A stretch of DNA of 64,000 nt from Octopus vulgaris (lineage: Eukaryota). The position numbers and the translations under genes were made by a program. Positions 4,522 through 62,754 of this stretch are shown here, one piece after another (the first letter of the stretch is position 1; every line of letters begins with the position of its first letter). The stretch covers positions 57,350,001 to 57,414,000 of the forward strand of contig OX597824.1 in NCBI GenBank assembly GCA_951406725.2, written 5' to 3'. Below the pieces are notes generated by a model. That model searched no databases. It was not told where the DNA came from and was given only the letters and a program-made list of their open reading frames with translations.

Positions 4522-4608
4522 ATTATTTACATTATCTACATTTGACGTATATTTCTCCTCATCTTGTTTGTTGTTAACCTGGGTTCTCATTCCTAAGGTA
4601 TTTTTCAA

Positions 4609-4662
<54 letters not shown>

Positions 4663-4830
4663 CGAAAAATACCTTTGGAATGAGAACCCAGGTTCGAAAT
4701 TTCCCCCAAGACACCTGATGAAGGCGGGAGGGTATATCAGCCGAAACGTTGTGTTAACAACAAACAAATATCCGTCAAATGTAAATAATGTAAATGATGC
4801 ACATAATCCCTCATCTCTTAAATATAGAAC
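4522..4830. mobile_element. Inverted-repeat unit around (TTA)n, Penelope terminal-repeat-like, carrying a hammerhead
   Basis: 4522-4606 is the reverse complement of 4664-4798 minus the ribozyme segment; unit flanked by direct repeat tgaaaaaaaactag (~4509-4521 and ~4831-4845). Confidence 0.7.
4710..4755 (+). ncRNA. Minimal type I hammerhead ribozyme, core intact
   Basis: gacac-CTGATGA-a-ggc...gcc-GAAAC-GTT-gtgtt; stem I gacac/gtgtt, stem II ggc/gcc, loopless palindromic stem III ACGT. Confidence 0.75.
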
Positions 4831-4847: not shown

Positions 4848-5845
<998 letters not shown>

Positions 5846-8658: not shown

Positions 8659-8989
8659 GCGGGGAGTATCATAGCCATGTGTTGAAAGGAATTCTTAGAG
8701 GTTTGGATAATTCACCTTTGGAAACATGGGTGGTTCGTTCAACATCCTTAAATAACCCTTATTCAGGGACCTTTTGAGCGGGATGGGTTACTCGACCAGA
8801 AGAAAATTCTAACTAGGCCCCACCTGCAAGGTCATGTGCTGTTTATCTTGATATGAAATCACCATGTCCCACACATATGGTTATGATGCATGTGCCTAGT
8901 GTACCCTTATCAGACGGGTAGTCATGATGGGTATACCGGGTATATTTTACCTCAGTGTCACTTTGATGGCATGCACTACTCTCTCACTC

Positions 8990-8990
<1 letters not shown>
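8659..8990 (+). mobile_element. (TAA)n-flanked non-coding retroposon, 5'-truncated copy
   Basis: Closely matches 57712-58047; (TAA)n on both sides. Confidence 0.85.
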
Positions 8991-9021
<31 letters not shown>

Positions 9022-9055
9022 TACCTATTATTATTATTTTTGTTGTTGTTGTTGT

Positions 9056-9608
9056 TGAGTGAGAGAGCAGTACATGCCATCAAAGTGACACATGGACAAA
9101 CTATACGAAACTCAATATACCCAACATGACTACTCATCTGATAAGGGTACACCAGGCACATGCGTCACAACCATATGTGCTCCACATGCTTATCTAATAT
9201 CAAATTAAACGTATGATCTTATAGATAGGGCCCAGTTACAATTTCTTCAAGTCAAGCTGCTCATCCCGCTCAAACGGTCCTTGAATAAGGGTTGTTTAAG
9301 GATGTTGAACGAAATACCCTTGTTTCTAGAGGTGAATTATTGAAACCTCCAAAGAATTCCTCTCAATACATGGCTATGATGCTCCCCTCACTACTTCTGC
9401 TCGTGATCAGAGATGCACATATCGTCAGCCACTAAGAGACGTGCTCAACTGGTTATGGTCAAACAGCTGACAAGCAAATCTGAGGTATTGACAGAATATT
9501 TGCTGTAGCCCATCTTTTCCACTAAGGCAAAACATGTAAATGATAATATTTCTAATCTGTTAAGATCAGAAGCCATGAGAGTCACTGCCTGGTACTACAT
9601 CGGGAGAT
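9056..9608 (-). mobile_element. (TAA)n-flanked non-coding retroposon, inverted copy
   Basis: Reverse complement of 57501-58047; tail-to-tail with 8659-8990. Confidence 0.85.
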
Positions 9609-13489: not shown

Positions 13490-15633
13490 ATTCCATTATA
13501 TTGGCCATAAAGGCCTTACACAGAGAAAGGAAGCTACGGGCTGGACACAGACATAATGTTATGTGAATGAAAAATGAAAATGATGATTAATGGTGGAAAA
13601 AGCGACACCTGCCGATCGTTCTTTCCGAGAACATTGTTCTCTTATATTATTCATGAGGCAACAAACCTCTTGCATTGTTCCCAATATTCAATAACAAAAT
13701 GAGACACGGAGCCTCTTACCTTTTTTGTCCGAACTAGGAACTTTCAAAAACACTAAGGCTTTTCAACCTCTTATCCATATTCCTCCCCAACATCGCTTGT
13801 GACCTCATCCTCTGCCATCACCCACGCCTCATTCCAGCACAAAGCGGGTGCCGTGTCGGCGTCGACCGGCCACATGTGATATTCCTCATTGAGTCCCTCC
13901 AGCCTACGCAACACGGGCAACGTTATGACCTCCACAGCTATCTGCAGAGACCATTCGGGATCCCGTGTGCAGGCTAAAAGTACTCCCTTATGGTGCCTTT
14001 CTAGCACCTTCTCCACCTCTCCGCCTCTGTATGAGAAGATCAATAATAGTCACTTCTACCGTCGGTAGCACAATTTCAACCGACGGTGTTTCTTCCTCTG
14101 CCTGTGGCACAATCCCCACCGACGAGGTTCCGACTCATTCTGGTACTATTTCACCGACTGCCGGCAATGTCCCGTTTCTCTTCCTCTTCCTCTTTTTTTT
14201 CTTCTCATCTGAGTGAGGGTGCGTCTCTTCCGTGACCGGGAGATTCGTCTCCACTCCCTCATCTCTAGGATACTTCGGTGAGCATCCATTGTTGCTCACC
14301 TTCTTTCTCATGTGGTCCTTCTTTGAGGAGTCCTCTACATCCTCGGCTGCCTTCGTTCCCTCTTCTACAGCGGTCTCAACCAACTGCTCCAGGGCGTTAC
14401 TTTGTTCCTGGGGAAGTTTTTCTTTATATGGCCAGGCCCCGGGCATCGATGATACCTGGTGGCGAGCCTCAAGAATCACCGGGTACCTGCACATGGCCAT
14501 TTTCAAAAGATTTGGAAATACCAGATTTTTGGCTGATTGGGTCCAGAGGGTCAAACCACTTTTAACCCCACCCAATCAGCTGCAGGTAAAATTTTTACAT
14601 TGGGGAGCTTGGCTCCGCTGCCACCCAGACCCTGGCAGATAGTGTCCTCTATCCACTCGGGTTCTATTCCGCGTGGCAAACCACAGACTCAAGCCCTCAT
14701 CGACGTCCTTCCACAATACGTGTGAAGAAACAAAATCTCTCTGCCCTCCAATGGCTAGCTAGCAAATTTGCGAGCCTCCTCAGGGGTGTCAAATAGCAAC
14801 AACACCATTGCATATTTGACACCCCTGGAGATGAATTTAATAGTTGGCAGATACTCTGCCAACTCCCTTTCGATAGCAGTTTTTTTCAAATAGGGCGATG
14901 GTGTCGAGCGACTTGGAGTAGGTCCTCAACACCACCGTCCTCTCTTCGAAGTCTTTCAACCACTGTTTGGTTGGTACAATTTCCCACTCCAAAACATTGT
15001 GCTTGTTCTTTGCCATGTTTTTTTTAAAATAAAAAGTCCCAAAACAGTTCATGATTAAAATTGTAAAAAAAAGAAGAAAGAAAAGGAAAGAAATCAAAAG
15101 AAAGTCACAACAAAACGGAAGGAAGAAAAAAGAAAACAGTTCAATAAAAAGAAACTCGCAAAAAATATAGAAGAAAAGAAAGCAACAGTTCAAAAAAACA
15201 CAGCAAGAAATCTTCTAGCCACGCGGTAATCCATGCCAATTTGGTACTCCGATTTGAACCTGGAACGCCACCGCTTGAACACACCTTTCACAAAAATTGG
15301 TAAAAGAAAGTGTATCTTCGATAAATTCTCACAAATTTTGAAAAAAAACAAACTATTCACTAAAAGTGAACAATTTTTTGGCAGCGAGATACGCCCCCAA
15401 ACAAAACTTCTATTCACTCAACTGCAGGCAGACCAGAGTCCAGAATCCAGTGAGGACTTCTTGTTTGTAAAAATATAATTACGGCAAACAACAAACCCCC
15501 ACTGGACCCAAAAAAAACAAAAGTCTTACCTTACAGTTGAACTTTTTTTAATCACTATTTCACCGGCTTCAAACCTGCGTCGTAACTTTAATCAGTGATA
15601 CGAACAACACTGACGACGAAACGTATGCACAGT
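13490..15633 (-). mobile_element. ORF1-only Tx1-like retroelement, copy 1, inserted in a SINE head
   Basis: Homologous to 60571-62754 over 5' leader and ORF; ~280 bp 3'UTR; no RT; flanked by the two halves of a SINE. Confidence 0.8.
13771..15016 (-). pseudogene. Frameshifted ORF1-like protein (putative RRM-like N-terminus, CCHC knuckle, charged linker, conserved C-terminal domain)
   Basis: MAKNKHNVLEWEIVPTKQWLKDFEERTVVLRTYSKS...FISRGVKYA...GLPRGIEPEWIE...YRGGEVEKVLERHHKGV..DPEWSLQIAVEVIT; several stops and frameshifts. Confidence 0.8.
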
Positions 15634-17290: not shown

Positions 17291-17406
17291 CACATACACA
17301 TACATACATACACACATACACACATACACACATACATATATACATATATATATGTATATATATATATATATATATGCATATATACATATATGTACATACC
17401 TACATA

Positions 17407-17454
<48 letters not shown>

Positions 17455-17678
17455 GATATGTACATACCTACATATATATGTATAATTGAGTAGTTGAATG
17501 AATTATCTTATTATGGATAATTCGGTTAACCGATACCTGGGTAGCAAATTCACGTCAGAAAAACACGGTTGAAGCTACATGCCTAGAGCAGAGATCACGT
17601 GCTTTCGTGTGGAAATTTGTGGGGTTTTTTAAATACAAATAAATGAAAGAATGGAGTTGAACGACGAATTAACAAAAT

Positions 17679-17776
17679 TGCTTTATTTTCGACATATGTT
17701 TCGAAGGCTGCATATTCCTAATTTCGAAGGAATAAGGGGTGCATTATGCCGCCTTCTCATCAGGAAAAACAAGGAA
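17679..17776 (-). ncRNA. Minimal type I hammerhead ribozyme, minus-strand mirror copy
   Basis: Reverse complement of 17900-17997 with intact core. Confidence 0.85.
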
Positions 17777-17899
17777 CTTATGTCAGCATCAAGATGCACA
17801 AAAGCTTTTAGATGACTGCCCACGCGGAGCCCATAGCGATAATGGGCTCCGTGTGGGCAGTCATCTAAACGTTTTTGTGCATCTTGATGCTGACATAAG

Positions 17900-17997
17900 T
17901 TCCTTGTTTTTCCTGATGAGAAGGCGGCATAATGCACCCCTTATTCCTTCGAAATTAGGAATATGCAGCCTTCGAAACATATGTCGAAAATAAAGGA
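17900..17997 (+). ncRNA. Minimal type I hammerhead ribozyme, core intact
   Basis: ttttc-CTGATGA(17913-19)-gaaggcggcata...tatgcagccttc-GAAAC(17974-78)-ATAT-GTC-gaaaa; predicted cleavage after C17985; stem I extends through ttcctt/aaggaa. Confidence 0.88.
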
Positions 17998-18065
17998 ATT
18001 TTGTTAATTCGTCGTTCAACTCCATTCTTTCATTTATTTGTATTTAAAAAACATACATATATATG

Positions 18066-18113
<48 letters not shown>

Positions 18114-18115
<2 letters not shown>

Positions 18116-18680
18116 CATGCATATATAGGTAAAGAACGTAAAAAAACTAGAACAAAATGAAAAACGTAAAAAACAAAAACAGAAAACGAATTTTTTTCGA
18201 ACAACGAAAGAAGCAAATAGAGAAACGAGATAGGCAACATAAAGAACAATCCCTTCATCAGTTGTCGCCTGTTTTATCAACCTTGCGTTTCGAACGTTGA
18301 GACAAGCCACGACTTCGTTAAAACAGTCGTTCCCGCAAAGCAAATTAAGTGGTTCTGGATTCAGTCCTACTTGGGGAAGTGTCCCCTACTATAGACTCGG
18401 GTCGACGAAAAGAGAGGGACAGAAAGAGAATTTTATTTAATGTGCTTTGCGGGAACTACTGTTTTAACGAAATCGTGTCTTGTCCCAACGTTCGGAACGC
18501 GGAGTAGATAAAACAGGGAACAACAGATGAAGGGATTAATCTTTATGTTGCCTGTCTAGTTTCTCCATTTGTTTCTTTCGTTGTTCGAAGAAAAGTTCGT
18601 TTTCAACATTTTTGTTTTTTATGTTCCCATTTTTCATTTTCTTCACGTTTTTTTAAGTCCTGTACCCATATATGCATGTG
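18114..18680. repeat. Diverged inverted repeat (arms 18114-18349 and 18437-18680) with a SINE A fragment in the spacer
   Basis: Arms are recognisable reverse complements and carry GAAAC..GTH..CTGATGA motifs. Confidence 0.85.
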
Positions 18681-18763
18681 TATATACATATATATGTAGG
18701 TATTGCATATATGTATATATGCATATATATATTATTTATATTATCATATCCATTTCCAAGTAA

Positions 18764-19138: not shown

Positions 19139-19156
19139 ACTTAAAGAATGTGTTAC

Positions 19157-19258
19157 GCTTACTGCACTTAGGTTTCCCAAGCGGTCACCCATCTAAGTAC
19201 TGACTAGGCTCGGTGATCGGACGAGAACCGGTGCTTTCAACGTGATATGGCCGTAAGC
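19157..19258 (-). pseudogene. 5S rRNA: 5S rRNA pseudogene with ~16 nt internal deletion
   Basis: gcttacggccatatcacgttgaaagcaccggttctcgtccgatcaccga[gap]gcctagtcagtacttagatgggtgaccgcttgggaaacctaagtgcagtaagc; box A region missing and no oligo-T terminator. Confidence 0.92.
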
Positions 19259-36116: not shown

Positions 36117-36213
36117 GAAAGAAGAAAACCTCAAAAAGAATATATTGGAAGAATACTATATTCAATTTTAAAAAAGGTAAAATCAGACAGAACTTATGGG
36201 ATGACCTGACATA

Positions 36214-36667
36214 TAATAAATGAAAAATACACATTAAGGACAGGACATCACCAACGGATGATAAATACGTAAATATTCAACGAGAGATAAGTACGGGACA
36301 AAATATCAAAAGATGTCCAACCGCTCCTCAGTTGTTGATTGTGATATTATTCCCTGTTTCGTGCTTTTAACGACAAAACAGTCGTCATCGATTGTTTACT
36401 TCCATATGTCCACTCTTGTGCCGTTTGTTCATTCGAAGCCCTAACCTCCACAAATTTATATTTCTAAAAGTTCTGAATACTGCTATCTTATGAAGTTTTC
36501 CTATCTTGTCGTTAAAAGCATGAAACAAGGAGTAACATCACAGTCGACAACTGAAGAGGGGTTAGACTTCTTTTGATATTTTCCCTGTACTTATCTATCA
36601 TTTTGCGTTTACGTATATTTCACTCATTGGTAATGTCCTGTTCTTAATGTGTATTTTTCATTTATTA
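36214..36667. repeat. Diverged inverted repeat (arms 36214-36381 and 36501-36667)
   Basis: Arms are reverse complements, each with GAAAC-N5-RTA-N16-CTGARGA. Confidence 0.85.
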
Positions 36668-36704
36668 AATAATTGAATGCCACGCAGCCTTTGTCAACAG
36701 TAAG

Positions 36705-38232: not shown

Positions 38233-38285
<53 letters not shown>

Positions 38286-38288
38286 AAA

Positions 38289-38779
38289 AAGAAAACGGGG
38301 AGGATATAAAATCGACAGACATCAGCCGGTAAACATTCCAGTATTTCTATTTATTCAAATGTATTGGATGAATATACACACATGTATGGTACAAATTAGC
38401 GAGTGGAAAAAACTGGTAACTGCAAAACAAGGGTGTGAATACATATAAGCATATAGAAAGAAATTAGCAATTGAGCAAATTGGCAAAACACTAACTGAGT
38501 GTGCATGTACTAGTCCTTACGGCCGTTTCTGCCAAGAGGCGACGAAATCTTCCAGGCTATCTCCTTCTCTTCAGTGTTAGGCATGGATGAACAGACAAGA
38601 CTTGGATAACAGATGTGCCCCTAGGCTTCTTCAGAGTGTGTAACTGGTTGGGATGGGGCTAATACATATAAAAGTCAGTTAGCTATGTGTGTGTATTCAT
38701 CCAATACCTTTGAATAAATAGACATACTGGAATGTTTACCGGCTGATGTCTGTCAAATTTGTAGCCTCTCTGTTTTCTT
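38289..38779. mobile_element. Small non-coding element with ~90 bp terminal inverted repeats and an internal hammerhead
   Basis: 38289-38383 is the reverse complement of 38685-38779. Confidence 0.75.
38516..38636 (-). ncRNA. Minimal hammerhead ribozyme with long stem II
   Basis: ct-CTGAAGA-a-gcctaggggc...gcctcttggc-a-GAAAC-GGCC-GTA-ag; stem I is short. Confidence 0.6.
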
Positions 38780-39336
38780 ATTTGCCGTATAAATTAAGAG
38801 TAAGCCACTTGTTAGCCCCGCCCATATGTAATACCCAATTGCGAGATTGTCATGCAATAACTAGCACTTGGATATTTAAGAACATAACAACAGGTGTCTT
38901 TCGACTAATACAGACGAATCAAGTTCTGTAAATTGTTCTTAAATTGTTGTTCTTAAGGAAAAGTTAAATAAATGAGAAGTATATGATTATATGTATATTA
39001 AATAAAACCTTATAAACATTGGCAAAAACACACCTTTAGTTCATATAACTAATCGCTATCATTATATATAAGTTAAACCTTTTTCTTTTTATATCTAACA
39101 TTCACTAAAAAAAATATATTTTCCTAGTTTATATGGCTTTATTTAATATACATATAGTTATATACTTCTCATTTATTTAACTTTTCCTTAATTTATCCCT
39201 CCTCTTTCTATAGGCTACCTCTGATGTTATATCATATAACGTTTTTTCAAACAGTATTAATAGCGTTCAGTAAATCACTATACATATCCATAATTTTCTG
39301 TTAAAATGTCTTATTGACGAGTTTCATTTCTTCTCG

Positions 39337-42473: not shown

Positions 42474-42829
42474 AAGATAGAAGCGTAATCCCTCCCCAAT
42501 TATAGCAATCGATGAGTTTTCCGTTCTTTGGAAGCTTGATGATTACGCCCCCACCTCCCGTTGCCAATCCTCTGGGACCCGGCCTGTCATCCAGCATACA
42601 TTTAGGAGGGCCGTCGGATGTTCGACAATGGGATGACCACCGTGTTCCAGCATCTCCGCTGCCACCAAAAGAAAGGTCGTCAATATCGTTTTCTTAAGAT
42701 GGCTGCAAAGGGCGGTGGATGAGAGGCTCCGAGAAGAACAAGCCGGTTTTCGACGCGGACAGTCGTACAATGAACAAATCGTGTTGCGCAACATTATCGA
42801 ACAGAGCGTCAGGGTACATGTGTGTACAC

Positions 42830-42860
<31 letters not shown>

Positions 42861-43832
42861 TGTATGTATGTTTGCGTATGCATGCATGTGTATGCATATA
42901 TATATGTATGCAAAATGGTACATTTTACCCCCTCCCCTATTTCTTATGGCAATCGACTTCGTCATGCGCGGGGCGATGCACCAACCCAGATTTGAGATTC
43001 CGTGGTTTGGTTCGGGGCGCCTGACTGACCTCGACTTCGCCGATGACATCGCACTCCTCGGAACGACGAAGAATGTCATTCGCACAATGACAGAGAGATT
43101 GGAACGGGAGGCGGCCAAGATCGTACTCCGCATAAGTGCAAACAAGACGAAGATCATGAGGATTGGATATGTCGATGAGAACATTAATAGCGTCCCCTTG
43201 ATGACTGGACAACACCAAATCGAGGAAGTTGATGAGTTCACCTATTTGGGCAGCATCGTGGCAAAAGACGGAGACGCCTGAACGCGACGTTGCCTGCCGG
43301 ATTGGGGAGGTCTCGGCTGTCTTCTAAAGATTCAAACCCATCTGGGCAGGCAGGGCAATCTCCATCAAGACCTAAGTGCGCCTCTTCAACAGCATCGTCA
43401 TACCATCGGCAATATACGCTGCAGAAACATGTAGGACATCGGTAAAGATCGCACGAAGTCTGAATATATTTCAGTTATGATGCCTCTGGCAGATACTGCG
43501 AGTATTATGCCATGACCACATCACCAACAACGAGATACATCACCGAACTGATACCCATCCATCCCGTAACGTTGTCACTGAACGCCGCTTACAATTCGCA
43601 GGCCATGTCCTCCGATTACCATTGTTACAGTATGCGAAAACCGCCATTCTGTGGAAGCCAATGCATGGCAAGAGAAAACAAGGGCAGCCAAAAGCGACTT
43701 GGCGCCGCACCTTCATCGATAACCTCAAAGTCATTGACATTTAATGGGATGAAGCTGAAATTGCCGTGGCCGACCGACCACGTTGGAGAAGCCTTGCCGC
43801 CCAATGTGCCGCTGGAGGACTCAAAACTAAGA
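42474..43832 (+). mobile_element. RTE-clade LINE, 5'-truncated, with inverted 5' segment and internal replacement
   Basis: Minus 42474-42666: AEMLEHGG..VPEDWQ..IIKLPK..NWGGITLLS; plus: LREEQAGFR..DLDFADDIALL..EFTYLGSIV..YAAET. Confidence 0.92.
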
Positions 43833-51001: not shown

Positions 51002-51054
<53 letters not shown>

Positions 51055-51058
<4 letters not shown>

Positions 51059-52565
51059 AAACCGGTGAAATAAAAGAATTAGACCAAAGCCAAACTTACA
51101 AATACTTAGGAATCCATGAACTAGATAAGACACAACACACACAAATGAAAGAGAAAATTAAAAAGGAATATTATAGACGAGTTAGATCAATACTAAAAAC
51201 AGAGCTCAATGCTAAAAACAAGATAATAGGTATTAACACTTTAGCTGTCCCAGTTATAAGTTACAGCTACAATATCCTTAACTGGACACTAAATAAACTG
51301 ACCAAAATAGATAGGAAAACAAGAAGAATAATGACAGGATCTAGGATGCATCACCCAAAATCTGACATAGAAAGACTATATATACAAGTTATAGAAGGTG
51401 GTAGAGGCCTTATACAGCTGGAAAACTACTATAAAATAACCACCATAGGACTACAAAAATATCTACTTCAGAAGGAAGGAAAACTGATACAAATAGGGGC
51501 AAAACACGAGCAAAACAAAAAGCTGTTCTTAGTATTTAAGGAAGCTGACAAATACAAATAAGAAATCATACCACCTAACAAATATGAAGAAGAAGAAGAA
51601 GAAGAAGAAGAAGAAGAAGAAGAAGAAGAAGAAGAAGAAGAAGATACAACAAAAGCTATAAAACAAATGAAATCCAAACTAAAACTAGAACAGCAAAGAA
51701 CCATGATAAAACGATGGCAAGAAAAGCCCTTTCATGGTAAATACTGGACTAAACTAAATGCAAAAGAAATAGACAAAGAAAAATCCCAGCTATGGTTGAG
51801 AAGCTCAGGACTCAAAGCAGAAACAGAGGGATTTTTAATTGCAACACAAGACCAAAGCCTCCCCACCAGAAATTACCAAAAAAACGTATGAAAAGAAATA
51901 TAACAAGTAACTGCAGAATATGTGGAAATGGACAAGAAACAATAAATCATATTATCTCTGGCTGCCCAGTCCTGGCTAAGAAGGACATGACAGAGTTGGA
52001 ACCTACATACACTGGAAGCTATGCCAACATTATGGAATAACAACAGAAAAAAGATGGTATAGGCACACACCAGAAAAGGTCACAGAAAACGAGAAAGCAA
52101 CCATACTCTGGGATATGCCGATACACACAGAGAGAGAAATTAAGGCCAACAGACCAGATATAGTTGTCAGAGATCATGAAGAAAAAAAATGCTTTCTAAT
52201 TGATGTATCAATACCGGCAGATGACAACGTGTCTCTAAAAGAAATGAAGAAACTTTCAAAATACAAAGACCTGGAAATAGAGGTAACCAGACTGTGGAAT
52301 CTAAAAACAGAAACAATTCCTATCATAGTAGGTGCATTAGGCATGATAAAAAAATATTCAGACAAATACATAACAAAAACACCAGGACTTACAAACATAT
52401 ATAACATACAGAAAATTGCACTACTAGGCACTGCACACATCCTACGCAGAACACTTTCAATACAATAACTATCAGAGCATCACAACAAATCACAGCACAT
52501 ACCCAAGGCACACAGAGCTGCGCTCGGTAGTGAAGTGAAAGCACGCTATAAAATTAAAATACGGA
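51055..52565 (+). mobile_element. R4/Dong-type RLE retrotransposon, family D1, 5'-truncated copy
   Basis: ORF pieces with GGRGL, CRIC..ETINHIISGC zinc finger, RPD..IDVS..KY endonuclease; (TAA)n on both sides. Confidence 0.93.
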
Positions 52566-52595
52566 ATAATAATAGTAATAATAATAATAATAATG

Positions 52596-52654
<59 letters not shown>

Positions 52655-52655
<1 letters not shown>

Positions 52656-54228
52656 GATACAAGCGGGGATTGACCAACTGATGGCACTACCAGAAAGACA
52701 ATGACAATGCACGGTGTCCTCCAGCCTAAGGCAAATGTACACATGCTCAACACGAAGACAGGTAAAAGTAAAGGAAAAATGAGAGAAACATCCAACGTTA
52801 AAATTGACCAGCAGAATGTCATAAAGGAGTTAGAACCAGCGGAGAGCTACAAATACCTAGGGGTATTTGAATCAAACATTTAGTGATGAGAGAAAAAATC
52901 AGAAGAGAATATTATCGCAGAGTGAGATCAATACTTAAGACTGAGATGAATGCAAGCATAGGATCGAAACGATCTATACTGTAGCCATACCAGTCATGAC
53001 TTACAGTTTCAATACCATTAACTGGTCATTTACTGAAATACGTAAGCTTGACAGAAAAATACGAAAATTGTTGATAATGCATAGAATGCACCACCCTAAG
53101 GCAGATACAGAACGACTTTACCTGCCAAGAAAAGAGGGTGGCCGTGATCTTTTACAACCGGAATTAACAATGAAGATTGCTACAATTGGCCTAGATACCT
53201 ACCTGAAAAACTCTGATGACTAGATGTTAAAACTGCTCTCAAAGCATGAAAACAAGAAAGCATCATACTCAGTAACAAAACAGGTAAAGGAATTAAGTGA
53301 TTTCCAAATACAACAAATTCCAGAATTAGACATACTAGAAATAAGCACAGAAAAAGCTAAGCGTATGAAAACACATGCTAAAACTGCTGCCTTAGATATT
53401 CTTACTGATAAATGGCAAGAAAAACCTCTCAATGGCAAATACCCAAAGAGAGCTAATACTGCCGATGTTGACAAAGCCCTTACCAATCAATGGTTAATGG
53501 CTTTTGGCTTAGAATCAGAAACAGAATGGTTTATCTATACCTACCCACAAGGAACTACCAGGCAAACATATTAAAGAACGGTAGTAGCCCAAGATGTCGT
53601 GTATGTCAACAGTAAAATGAGATCATTCATCATGTTGCCACCATGTGCAGTCTTCTTGCGCCTACAGAGTATCTCAACAGGCATGATAGAACAGCACAAT
53701 ATATTCACTGGTTCCTGCCCCATGATAAGAACTGGTGGGAACACAAAACCACCTCCAGTGCTTGAAAATGATCACATCTGGAACTTTATTCAAACTGACA
53801 GAAAGATAGATTCGAATAGGCCAGACATTGATATAAATGTTCCAATCAACATAAATGTATATGCCAAGACCTACCAAAAACTGAGCAAGTATAAAGATCT
53901 TGATATAGAAATTGGCAAAATGTGGAACCTCAAAACTAAAACAATTCCTGTTGTCATAGGTGCCCTAGGAATGATAGCAAAAGGGGCTGATTCCTACCTT
54001 GCTCAGATACAAGGAAACCCCAAAATGGCAGTAATTCAAAGGATAGTGCTCATGGGAACTGCCCATATCCTACGTAAAATACTGTCTATGTAATCTCAAA
54101 TTTTAAAACAAACTCAATTTTTAATGGTTTCTTAAACATTCTCTATGTGAACTTCTAACTTGTTGTCTCTTGAGGACTCTGGGTAAGACTTAGAGTCAAC
54201 TTGTATAAATGCAAAGCAAAAGTCTAAC

Positions 54229-54230
<2 letters not shown>
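52655..54230 (+). mobile_element. R4/Dong-type element, family D2, decayed
   Basis: YKYLGV, MHHPKADTERLYLPRKEGGR, NRPD..KLSKYKDL..IPVVIGALG; (TAA)n flanks. Confidence 0.9.
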
Positions 54231-54309
<79 letters not shown>

Positions 54310-54313
<4 letters not shown>

Positions 54314-56590
54314 CTCAGCATCTGAGCAACTTTGGATCCCCATAACAACCGAAGAGGTCACCCAGGCACTGCAAAGACTAAGCAACTGGAAGGCACCTGG
54401 GCATGACAAGATACCCAACTTCTGGTTGAAATATCTAACAGGAATGCACAAAAAGCTGGCTGAAAACTTTAACAACATACTAGCAGAGCCAGAGACAATG
54501 CCAGAATGGCTCACGAAGGGGAAAACCATCTTAATTCCTAAATCAAATGAGACAGCAAAACCAGAAAACTACAGACCAATAACCTGTCTCCCTACAATGT
54601 ACAAGGCATTTACTGCAGTGATATCGCAAAGGTTGAACAAGCACCTGGACGAAAACAACCTGTTTCCAGAAGAGCAGAAAGGATGCCGCAAAGGCTCATA
54701 TGGCTGTAAAGATCAACTAATGATTAATAAAGCCATAACTGAAGACAGCCACAGAAAGAAGAAAAGCCTCAGTATGGCCTGGATCGACTACAAAAAGGCG
54801 TTTGATAGCATCCCCCACACATGGATCCTCGAAACACTAGTCATTAACAAAGTAGCATCAACAATTATAAAATTCATAGGACACTCTATGAATAAATGGC
54901 AAACAGTGCTATAGCTCCAAACAAAAGAGGGACTCATGAAAACCAAAGCCATCCCCATTAGAAGAGGAATATTCCAGGGAGACACGCTCTCTCCACTCCT
55001 TTTCTACTTGGCACTGTCACCTCTATCTGATATGCTAAATAGAACTGGATGCGGATATAAATGTTACGGCAAAACGATCAGCCACCTTTTATATATGGAT
55101 GAGCTAAAACTATACGCTGCAAATGACAAACAGCTGGAAACACTATTAAAGACAATTCATGGATTTACCAAAGAAATAGATATGAAGTTTGGATTAGAAA
55201 AATGCGCCAAAGTAACCCTGAAAAAAGGAAAACTAGTTAAGAGTAGCAACATTACACTAGATAAACCCAATGAAATAAAAGAATTAGACCAAAGCCAAAC
55301 TTACAAGTACTTAAGAATCCATGAACTAGATAAGACACAACACACACAAATGAAAGACAAAATAAAAAAAGAATATTTTAGAAGAGTTAGATCATTACTA
55401 AAAACAGAGCTCAATGCTAAAAACAAGATAATAGGTATTAACACTTTAGCTGTCCCAGTTATAAGTTACAGCTACAATATCCTTAACTGGACACTAAATG
55501 AACTGACCAAAATAGATAGGAAAACAAGAAGAATAATGACAGGATCTAGGATGCATCGCCCAAAATCTGACATAGAAAGACTATATATACAACGTATAGA
55601 AGGTGGTAGAGGCCTTATACAGCTGGAAAACTACTATAAAATAACCACCATAGGACTGCAAAAATATCTACTTCAGAAGGAAGGAAAACTGATACAAATA
55701 GGGGCAAAACACGAGCAAAACAAAAAGCTGTTCTCAGTATTTAAGGAAGCTGACAAATACAAACAAGAAATCATACCACCTAACAAATATGAAGAAACAA
55801 CAAAAGCTATAAAACAAATGAAATCCAAACTAAAACTAAAACAGCAAAGAACCATGATAAAACGATGGCAAGAAAAGCCCTTTCATGGTAAATCCCAGCA
55901 ATGTTTGAGAAGCTCAGGACTCAAAGCAGAGACAGAGGGATTTTTAATTGCAACACAAGACCAAAGCATCCATACCAGAAATTACCAAAAACATGTAATG
56001 AAAAGAAATATAACAAGTAACTGCAGAATATGTGGAGATGGACAAGAAACAATAAATCATGTTATATCTGACTGCCCAGTCCTAGCTAAGAAGGATTATA
56101 TTCACAGACATGACAGAGTTGGAACCTACATACACTGGAAGCTATGCCAACATTATGGAATAACAACAGAAAAAAGATGGTATAGGCACACACCAGAAAA
56201 GGTCACAGAAAACGAGAAAGCAACCATACTCTGGGATATGCCGATTCACACAGAGAGAGAAATTAAGGCCAACAGACCAGATATAGTTGTCAGAGATCAT
56301 GAAGAAAAAAATGCTTTCTAATTGATGTATCAATACCGGCAGATGACAACGTGTCTCTAAAAGAAATGGAGAAACTTTCAAAATACAAAGACCTGGAAAT
56401 AGAGGTAACCAGACTGTGGAATCTAAAAACAGAAACAATTCCTATCATAGTAGGTGCATTAGGCATGATAAAAAAATATTCAGACAAATACATAACAAAA
56501 ACACCAGGACTTACAAACATATATAACATACAGAAAATTGCACTACTAGGCACTGCACACATCCTACGCAGAACACTTTCAATACAGTAA
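54310..56590 (+). pseudogene. Reverse transcriptase-restriction-like endonuclease polyprotein, disrupted
   Basis: WKAPG.D, YRPITCL, IDYKKAFDS, GIFQGDTLSP, YMDE (catalytic DD changed to DE), in-frame stop at 54912, frameshift near 56310. Confidence 0.93.
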
Positions 56591-60044: not shown

Positions 60045-60245
60045 AATATCAGGAAGTATGAGAGTAGAATATATTTATTTAAGCACTTGACATTCCTAGG
60101 ATTGCGGCCGTTTTGCACCCTTTTTCATGTAGTAATAGTTTCAGTGTGGAACAAATTATGTACTAATTAATAAATGATGCGAAATGGCCGTAATTCTAAG
60201 GATGTCATGTGGTTAAATAAATATATTCATCTTTTATACCTCCTC
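60045..60245. repeat. Diverged inverted repeat containing hammerhead 3' halves
   Basis: aatatatttatttaagcac..gcggccgtttt versus gaaatggccgtaat..gtggttaaataaatatatt. Confidence 0.7.
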
Positions 60246-60570: not shown

Positions 60571-62754
60571 ACTGCGCATGTGCGAGTAATTGTGATGTTT
60601 GGCACCAAAGCGGTGAGACGTGCTTTTGAAGCCGTCTCGAACTGAAAAATTTTGAAGCTCCACTGTAAGTAAGATTCTGTTTTTTGGGTCCAGTGGGAAT
60701 TTTTGTTGAGAATTTTTTGTACACGCAGGAAGTCTTACTGGATTCAGAATTCTGGTCTACTTGCATGGAGCGAATATTTTTTCTCGCTTAATTGTGAGAA
60801 TTTTTGTTTGGGGGCGTATTCGTCTTCCTAGTTAGTGGTTTATGTTAAGTGAATATTTTTCTCACTTAATTATGAGAATTGTTGCTTGGAGGAATATCGT
60901 GCCAACTAAAAATTTGTTCACTTTTTGAAGAATTAAAAAATAACTGTGAGAACTGCTGTTTGGGGGAGTGTCTTTGCCTCCGAAGATTGAACGATTTGTA
61001 TACCAGTTTTTGTGGAAGTTGTGTTCCAGTTGTAGCATTCCGGGTTAAACCTGGGCCGGGAGTACCGAATGGCCGGAATATTTTTTTTTCTGTGTTTCTG
61101 AACTATTGACTTTCTTTCTTCTAAACTTTATTTGACTTTCTCTTTTTCGTGAATTGTTTCCTTTTCTCCTTTCCATTTTATTGTGACTTTCTTTTGATTT
61201 CTTTTTTCTTCTCTCGTTTTATTTTGAACATATTTTCGAACTGTTAAAAAAGAAGGGAAACATGGCAATGAAAAAAGACAAAGTATTGGGGTGGGAGATT
61301 GTAACGCCCAAAAAGTGGTTGAAAGACCGTGAAGATAGGACGGTGGTGTTGAGAACCTACTCCAAGTCATTCGACACCATCGCCCTATTCGAAAGACTGC
61401 AATTGAAAAGGAGTTGGCAGAGTATTTGCCAACAATTAAATTCATGTCCAGGGGTGTCAAATACGCAACGGTGCGATTGCTATTTGATACCCTTGAAGAG
61501 GCTCGCAAATTATGAGTCAGCCCTTGGATGTAAAGAAATTTTGTTTCTTCTCACATATTATGGGAGGAGGTTGACGAAAGCTCGGCTCTGCGGGTTGCCA
61601 CCCGGGATAAAACCCGAGTGGATAGAAGAGACTATCCGCCGGGGTCTGGATGGCAGCGGAGCCAAGCTCCTTAATGTGAATTTTTTTCCTGTGGCTGATT
61701 GGCTTGGGTCAAAAGCTATTTTGACCCTTTGGACCCAAAAAGCCAATCTGGTTTTACCAGATTATTTTAAAATGGCCGGGTGCAGGTACCCGGTGATTCT
61801 TGAAGGTTGCCCCCTCCTCAGGTATCATCGGTGCCTGGAGTCTGACCATATAAAGAAAAACTGTCCTCAGGAACAAAGTAAGGTCCTGGAGCAGTTTAGT
61901 GAGACATCTGTAGAAGAGGGAATGAATGCGGTCGAGGAGGCGGAGGACTCCGCAAACAGGGGCCGCAAGAGGAAGAAGGTGAGCAACAATGGGTGCTCAC
62001 CGAAGGATCCTAGGGATGAGGATGGGGAGGCGAATCTCCCGATCACGGAGGAGACGCACCCTCCCTCAGTTGAAAAGAAAAAAGAGGAAGAGGAAGAGAA
62101 ACGGGACATTGCCGGCAGTCGGTGACATATAGCGGAATGTCCCGGAACTATGTCGGTTATGGTTGTGCCACCGGCAGGAGAAGAGATACCGTTGGCGGGA
62201 ACTGTGCCACAAACGGAAGAATTGGATATCCCGCCCCCGGAGGAAGACGAATTATTGATCTTCTTCTATAGAAGCGGAGAGGTTGAAAAGGTGGTGGAAA
62301 AGCACCATAAGGGAGTACCTTTAGCCTTCACACAGGATCCCGAATGGCCTCCGCAGATAGCTGTAGAGGTCATAACGTTTGACGTGACGTTTAGGCTGGA
62401 GGGGCTCAATGAGATATATCGCTTGTACCCGGGCGACGCCGACATGGAACCCGCTTTGTTCTTGAATGAGGCGTGGAGGATGGAGGAGGATACGGGCACA
62501 AAATATGTTGAGGGTGAGTTATAAATTGTGGCACAGTGTGACACAAACATTTGATAATAGGCACTTCGCCTTCTTTCTGAACTCCCGGGTGTCAACGTGG
62601 TCTGCTCTGCAGGCGGCTAGATATTTGACTGGGGTCCGGGAGGAGGAGGAAGGGAAAAGTGGTAGTGTATTTTTGATATTTGATTAACTTTTTGATTTTT
62701 ATGTAAGAAAAGAACCTGTGATTGTAATGCCCCCACAGCCAATTTGATAACATA
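60571..62754 (+). mobile_element. ORF1-only Tx1-like retroelement, copy 2, with 15 bp TSD
   Basis: TSD aagaagcttgcttcc (60556-70) / aagaagctttcttcc (62755-69); ~690 bp leader, ORF, ~230 bp 3'UTR, no RT. Confidence 0.85.
61262..62524 (+). pseudogene. ORF1/gag-like protein with CCHC knuckle and conserved C-terminal domain, frameshifted
   Basis: ORFs 61262-62125 and 62150-62524; YHRCLESDHIKKNC (CX2CX4HX4C with first C changed to Y); RKRKK basic patch; comparison with copy 1 shows compensating frameshifts near 61395-61530. Confidence 0.82.

Follow-up and report, generated by a model that had tools for sequence, protein, structure and literature searches.

Head-to-head 3′ ends of a Hydra-like Penelope family in octopus (TA)n repeats, likely formed by two-ended priming and probably inert

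We analysed a 64-kb window of the Octopus vulgaris genome (the whole stretch of DNA under study, whose first letter is position 1). On the basis of its sequence, a palindrome in this window consists of two 3′ ends from a Hydra-like Penelope family, set head to head in (TA)n repeats. Its likely origin is two-ended priming, and the locus is probably inert; we give this reading as a whole a probability of about 0.7.

The palindrome and its Penelope family

The palindrome has the geometry given in the initial annotation: two arms of 211 nt (17624–17834 and 17842–18052) that are 98% complementary, enclose a 7-nt loop and differ at exactly four pairs of positions (17680/17996, 17804/17872, 17806/17870 and 17824/17852). 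The span 17624–18052 holds for the palindrome but falls short of the true insertion (approximately 17482–18052), as the left arm extends about 140 nt beyond that boundary, making the insertion lopsided between its flanking (TA)n runs. The tailed arm (17482–17844, minus strand) is a Penelope-like 3′ end (pLTR) that reaches from a putative RNA start region (17843–17844) to an outer end that we call A, corresponds to −80 to +281 of the reference (counted, as for all copies, from the C of CUGAUGA) and is 96% identical to an ORF-bearing copy; its tail of about 140 nt (17482–17623, minus strand) is restricted to this left arm. The tail-less arm (17842–18052, plus strand) carries the same pLTR from −70 to +138 with 99% identity to the reference copy, and thus ends at +138, where the usual family end, B, is at +124 or +130. 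The head-to-head joint (17835–17844) consists of the loop and a 3-nt ATG/CAT microhomology (17842–17844), which is also found in another copy (L097) and, with the arms swapped, in L106. The (TA)n-type microsatellite target on both sides (left, 17330–17481; right, 18053–18113) makes any target-site duplication unreadable. The palindrome had been called young, but its age is average for the family: 4 of the 187 sites compared are mismatched between its arms (2.1%), against a sample mean of 108 of 5226 (2.1%).

A search of the 2.8-Gb genome with the arm returned 1951 first-look candidates, and the best places among the 40 of these that were scored were 97–100% identical. A 26-nt core motif had 717 exact genome matches and its reversed control none, giving this young family at least 717 core copies. 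The Penelope origin considered in the initial annotation was borne out by longer copies, in which the same arm continues into an ORF for a reverse transcriptase (RT) with a C-terminal GIY-YIG-like endonuclease (EN). Copy L048 has an open frame of 833 amino acids with FxISSFYPS, MGS and YRDD motifs and a C-terminal SIYQC..FYIG. In the Atlas, the ORF halves lie near RT-bearing clusters (0.93–0.96) and a GIY-YIG cluster (0.95; 11% of members). Neither RT nor EN was matched when the ORF sequence was searched against Pfam and PDB, and RVT_1 was matched in 1 of 12 protein relatives, below the cut-off. In another copy (L136), the tail sequence runs straight into the 5′ UTR and ORF start, as expected of the tail of a Penelope-like element (PLE). 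A possible 65-nt intron (CAG|GTATCG ... TATACAG|) lies in this tail/5′ UTR (about 17482–17537, minus strand, in the window; 5417–5481, minus strand, in L136); it recalls the 75-nt intron of Penelope, and end A falls inside it.

The ORF has 6945 protein relatives at E ≤ 0.001, and we took a motif census of the 25 relatives of at least 680 amino acids among the top 50. DKT is present in 23 of the 25 and DKG in none; a CxCX5C-like linker occurs in 23, CxxC..E in 24, CxH in 22 and RW[KR] in 17. With the Hydra clade, as described in section 11 of PMC8557442, the octopus family shares DKT instead of DKG, the lack of CCHH in the EN core, CxxC before E, CxH after N, the hammerhead and (TA)n targeting. 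It differs from that description in having RWL (L136) in place of RWK, an Asn-rich stretch in place of the CxCX5C linker (no Cys at L048 residues 310 to 718) and a unit length of about 3.5 kb as opposed to under 3 kb. Given RWL and the missing linker cysteines, we call the family Hydra-like and not a confirmed Hydra member. The Asn-rich linker that replaces the CxCX5C of relatives is in frame (L048 residues ~430–715; also in L031 and L035). We found no relevant report of this family in octopus in the open literature, and the family list of PMC8557442 may already contain it.

Outer ends, inner ends and the origin of the two arms

The first 100 of the 717 matches lie at 81 places, and the sequences found there were mapped on real copies; chosen through an exact 26-nt match, this sample is biased to young, intact copies. 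The outer 3′ ends cluster at two positions. Site B lies at +124 (26 arms) or +130 (23 arms), and site A at +274 to +281 (shown at about +290 on the reference, since this includes TA flank); a TA-type run adjoins 120 of 127 outer ends. The cysteine linker had been credited with directing such targeting, which this family keeps without it; this counts against the linker being required. With the study locus and a duplicate (L083) included, 50 of 82 entries are head to head and 32 are single arms; without these two, 48 of the 80 other loci are head to head. Nearly all head-to-head entries (48/50) combine an A end with a B end, the remaining two an A end with a shortened end, and pairs of the A+A, B+B or tail-to-tail kind are absent from the 50. 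Site B is also where 17 of the 32 single-arm copies, and long ORF-bearing copies, end. Both arms extend upstream of the hammerhead core at 25 of 80 loci, two of them shortened (at +69 and +72), so that the motif lies in both arms at about 30% of the sampled loci; from 23–25 of 80 loci and 717 core matches, we estimate some 170 double-hammerhead palindromes in the genome. L082 and L083 (C1, 18 kb apart), and likewise L116, are identical insertions copied together with their flanks, through segmental or tandem duplication or as assembly duplicates.

These regularities bear on whether the palindrome is an assembly or amplification chimera, which we consider hardly credible. In contigs of 4 of 24 runs placed on 17480–18056, none spans it, a result that is uninformative with short-read contigs of a high-copy repeat. 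Against a chimera, the arms differ at four sites, the ends obey the A+B rule seen on many contigs, and in contigs of two independent runs these family ends likewise border (TA)n, with loose ends at 17481, 17633 and 18043.

The two arms of a locus resemble each other more than arms of different loci. Among the 35 pairs that overlap by at least 60 nt, arms differ by 2.1% within a locus and by 5.0% between loci; at 14 common polymorphic sites, alleles agree in 372 of 378 cells within loci (63% between loci), and arms of the same locus have 12 rare variants in common. Therefore, both arms come from one source or were homogenised later. On the 5′ side, the tail-less arm extends beyond the tailed one in 26 of 49 pairs (by at least 30 nt in 20 of them, and at most by 1.2 kb), falls short of it in 16 and matches it in 7; 20 of the 49 pairs are not nested in either direction. 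In L135 and L137, the tail is on the short inverted arm and is missing from the arm with the ORF. The joints of the 49 pairs comprise 25 overlaps of 1–7 nt, 2 longer overlaps, 3 blunt joints and 19 with inserted letters. As junctions and arm lengths vary by locus, the palindrome is evidently rebuilt at each insertion and not propagated as a unit.

The inner ends also pile up. Position −69 is reached by 74 of 130 arms, 46 of which end between −81 and −69, against about 3.5% expected from the downstream stop rate; the mode is −80/−79, about 80 nt upstream of the hammerhead core and within the word TCATT. TATAA precedes the stop site by 28 nt and TGACGTCA precedes it by 41 nt. We take TCATT to be Inr-like, TATAA to be a TATA motif and TGACGTCA to be a CRE. 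Across 20 distinct longer sequences, TCATT is intact in 18, TATAA in 17 and TGACGTCA in 12. We infer from the DNA ends that the RNA starts near −80, that both cDNAs would run off there and that short copies would be such run-offs. A hand tally of copies starting at −79 (100 of 104 listed) gave 40 G, 30 A and 30 T. Of 30 ends examined for a cap-derived G, 13 have G, and the partner arm could supply it in 10; ends directly following a TA run have one G at −79, two G elsewhere and four templated C. At L153 / L112 (G000:C2:174062307), the joint is perfect and has no loop: each arm stops at −79, and a CG that neither arm templates separates the two, the product expected if each cDNA had copied a cap G. 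Cleaved RNA was rejected as the template: a single arm of 141 ends at +72, and the one copy that seems to start at +73 does so within an overlap of 16 nt. With no cluster of ends at the cleavage site, the template RNA was presumably uncleaved.

In the mechanism that we propose, the element endonuclease would cut both strands of the (TA)n target, and each 3′-OH would prime reverse transcription on uncleaved RNA from one source element, at one or the other of two AU-rich sites inside the RNA, which lie about 150 nt from each other (B, +124/+130; A, +274/+281). Both cDNAs would extend to the RNA 5′ end at the Inr-like site, leaving the upstream CRE and TATA motifs uncopied, and their 3′ ends would be joined through a few complementary bases (ATG/CAT at the study locus). 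That a single RNA, or two sister RNAs, serves both primers is an assumption of this scheme. The purified Poseidon PLE behaves in several of these ways in the experiments described in PMC11167929: both target strands are cut and extended, the template RNA is uncleaved, two internal RT start sites bound the tail and hammerhead cleavage is dispensable. Two-ended priming has points against it as well. The allele sharing of arms could also stem from later gene conversion between them, 19 of 49 joints carry inserted letters in place of microhomology, and head-to-head palindromes have been attributed to self-priming, as stated in PMC3846280.

Self-priming within the same family, already raised in the initial annotation as a fold-back product of reverse transcription, is the alternative that bears most directly on the study locus. 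A tailed cDNA would reach −80, its ATG 3′ end would snap onto CAT and it would copy itself to site B; antisense RNA could otherwise prime itself. The 3-nt microhomology, the 7-nt loop and the longer tailed arm suit this course, and a single-cDNA fold-back accounts for the study palindrome as well as two-ended priming does. The one haplotype common to both arms and the presence of both inner ends inside −112 to −55 in 13 of 49 pairs also agree with it, as does the proposal in PMC3846280. Fold-back, however, requires the second arm to lie inside the first, and with 20 of the 49 pairs non-nested it cannot serve as the mechanism for the family; in addition, the study joint is found arm-swapped in L106, and site B behaves as a priming site, ending 17 of 32 single-arm copies and long ORF-bearing copies. 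Two cDNAs, one per cut end, explain all cases, and fold-back only some, including the study locus. We consider fold-back unlikely as the origin of the study palindrome.

Hammerhead motifs and the fate of the locus

Both strands of the palindrome carry CUGAUGA, stem II, GAAAC-AUAU-GUC and an extended stem I, as annotated, with CUGAUGA starting at 17913 (plus) and 17763 (minus) and GAAAC-AUAU-GUC ending at 17985 (plus) and 17691 (minus). In terms of two-ended priming, the hammerhead would be present on both strands because the motif sits within the stretch that is copied twice. The plus-strand type I motif (17908–17990, predicted cleavage after 17985) comprises stem I (17908–17912/17986–17990), the core (17913–17919), stem II (17920–17925/17968–17973), GAAA (17974–17977) and the palindromic helix III ACAUAUGU (17977–17984); the minus-strand motif occupies 17686–17768 (core CUGAUGA 17763–17757, predicted cleavage after 17691), and a private change at 17680 weakens its outer stem I. 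Stem II has 6 bp (GAAGGC/GCCUUC) and a long extension, and stem I has 5 bp, a 2×2 loop and about 6 further pairs. The type I core (CUGANGA, GAAA, NUH and three stems) is complete, with a monomer helix III of 2 bp only. Folded in isolation, the plus-strand motif had z = −3.7 (0 of 200 shuffles as good) and the minus-strand motif z = −2.1 (5 of 200). The ribozyme had been called intact, which stands for the sequence motif; Rfam gave no hammerhead match, either at the gathering score or at E ≤ 10, and its miRNA matches in the region were set aside as hairpin or microsatellite noise. The palindromic helix III is kept in 95 of 109 copies and is predicted to form an intermolecular (dimer) helix at −8.4 kcal/mol. 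Passages of PMC4209133 describe PLE hammerheads as having low, dimer-dependent activity, and cleavage by such motifs in metazoan PLEs is weak in the dimer (PMC4209133) or aided by protein, as stated in PMC11167929.

The expected competition between the ribozyme and its own antisense was upheld in predicted folding. On either strand, the antisense arm would be transcribed ahead of the hammerhead, which lies downstream of its own antisense, and a full RNA constrained to the hammerhead fold is less stable by about 129 kcal/mol (free versus forced, −373.7 versus −244.7 kcal/mol for the plus RNA and −363.7 versus −234.7 kcal/mol for the minus RNA). Even in a modelled RNA that starts at the centre, the pairing probability is 0.10 for stem I, 0.44 for stem II and about 0.01 for helix III. 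Read-through RNA would thus be predicted to fold as a long hairpin that blocks the ribozyme.

These folds weigh on the initial suggestion of a self-processing, viroid-like hairpin (a palindromic retrozyme) that would be transcribed, cleave in both polarities and move as a unit, a reading that the analysis did not bear out and that we regard as highly improbable. Both hammerhead cores are intact in sequence, helix III is palindromic and mostly kept, and the motif lies in each arm at about 30% of sampled loci. Type I hammerheads with a palindromic helix III, and PLE ancestry, are likewise features of non-LTR retrozymes and viroid-like RNAs; retrozymes, however, are defined as tandem in the text of bioRxiv 10.64898/2026.07.22.740005, whereas the octopus family has no head-to-tail arrays (0 of 81 loci) and no fixed monomer, and the polarities at the study locus are reverse complements of a single motif, unlike the two distinct ribozymes of viroid-like RNAs. 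Joints and arm lengths vary by locus, the only identical pairs being the segmental or tandem duplicates (L082/L083, L116); the cleavage site is not a preferred end point of copies (+72 in 1 of 141 arms); and in the models the hammerhead fold is 129 kcal/mol dearer, with stem I at about 0.1 even in centre-started RNA.

Equally in question is whether the PLE-derived palindrome now serves the host, as a source of dsRNA (an siRNA or ADAR substrate) or as a mini-promoter that acts in both directions; this is very unlikely. The claim of a long dsRNA holds in principle for read-through, which would give a 211-bp hairpin of −364 to −374 kcal/mol in the models, and bidirectional pLTR promoters have been suggested (in the discussion of pLTRs in PMC3846280). 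Against host use, neither arm has the CRE and TATA motifs, the level of divergence is the usual one in the family, and no host ORF is evident in the 64-kb window, only repeats and LINE pieces, although small exons could escape. Fly Penelope is described in PMC2377424 as having a TATA-less internal promoter; by analogy, the study arms might retain some promoter activity if the octopus family has one too. We conclude that the study palindrome is probably a dead by-product of insertion.

Further repeats with related features occur in the window. A neighbouring head-to-head pair in (TA)n (18050–18742; core arms 18191–18348 and 18437–18594) is older and belongs to another family, which has 2449 first-look candidates (87–91% identity) and an inverted arm at 1 of the 16 top loci. 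It contains hammerhead-like parts in an odd order (CGCGUC-UUGUCCC, then GAAACGCG, then GGGACAA-CUGAUGA); the putative helix III and stem I pair in 13–17 of 17 rows, but compensatory changes are absent and stem II is weak. The motif may represent a hammerhead that is pseudoknotted or acts in trans, or else the ‘half-core’ type of PMC8557442. Elsewhere, an (ATT)n run within a short inverted repeat (4576–4760) adjoins another hammerhead motif at 4715 (plus), and a frame at 4969–5448 (minus; CNCRSGTEC..IVYKC..YNIGST) resembles the linker and endonuclease of another Hydra-type element. Five more inverted repeats of the window (8661–9387, 36211–36670, 38284–38784, 38953–39191 and 60051–60244; 76–90% identity) are decayed, and we recognised no clear hammerhead in them. 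The window also holds a 5S rRNA-derived piece, probably a SINE head (19156–19258, minus; 45.9 bits), broken non-LTR retrotransposon ORF pieces (51052–56321 and 42543–43281) and a 1.5-kb dispersed inverted pair (13785–15232 and 61059–62514; 79% identity).

Comparison with known elements and implications

Earlier publications describe both inverted pLTRs and hammerhead pairs on opposite strands, and the study locus is ordinary in this respect. Inverted 5′-truncated copies and a one-sided tail of 30–40 bp are typical of EN+ PLEs according to the Fig. 2 legend of PMC8557442, and the relevant passages of PMC3846280 report head-to-head palindromes, TATA and Inr motifs in the pLTR and N-rich inserts. 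The octopus family matches these descriptions in its inverted, 5′-truncated head-to-head copies in a microsatellite target, its tail at one end, its hammerhead and TATA/Inr-like motifs in the pLTR and its N-rich insert between RT and EN; it differs in a tail of about 150 nt as opposed to 30–40 nt (PMC8557442), and the study insertion, unlike those described, contains no ORF. Schistosoma PLEs have dual minimal hammerheads on opposite strands, 100–700 bp apart, and, as far as set out in PMC4209133, resemble the octopus pair in this arrangement, in type I architecture, in a long helix II, in G10.1-C11.1 and in a palindromic helix III.

Poseidon PAc in vitro, as presented in PMC11167929, is alike in its two internal RT starts that bound the tail, its AT-rich target, the cutting and extension of both strands and the use of an uncleaved RNA template; it belongs to another clade, whereas the start sites about 150 nt apart are those of the octopus family, and the sections of that paper considered here do not treat inverted copies. 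We found no relevant report of twin priming in PLEs in the open literature. In LINE-1 twin priming, both target ends prime and the resulting inversion is joined by microhomology, with two pieces that barely overlap; the arms of the octopus family, by contrast, often copy the same 200 nt, giving a palindrome.

A bolder extension is that every insertion of the family is a two-ended event, carried out by a dimeric RT-endonuclease on two sister RNAs paired through hammerhead helix III. We consider this improbable; if true, the hammerhead would be a pairing handle more than a cutter, and the palindromes would be complete double run-offs to the RNA start and a direct record of the PLE integration mechanism. 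For PLEs, the published proposal for the formation of inverted pLTRs and one-sided tails is self-priming (PMC3846280, in the passages cited above), a reading against which the arm geometry of the octopus family argues; the family counts favour two-ended priming. The A+B rule, the shared alleles, the non-nested arms and the run-off at a single site give exact candidate priming and stop sites for this process.
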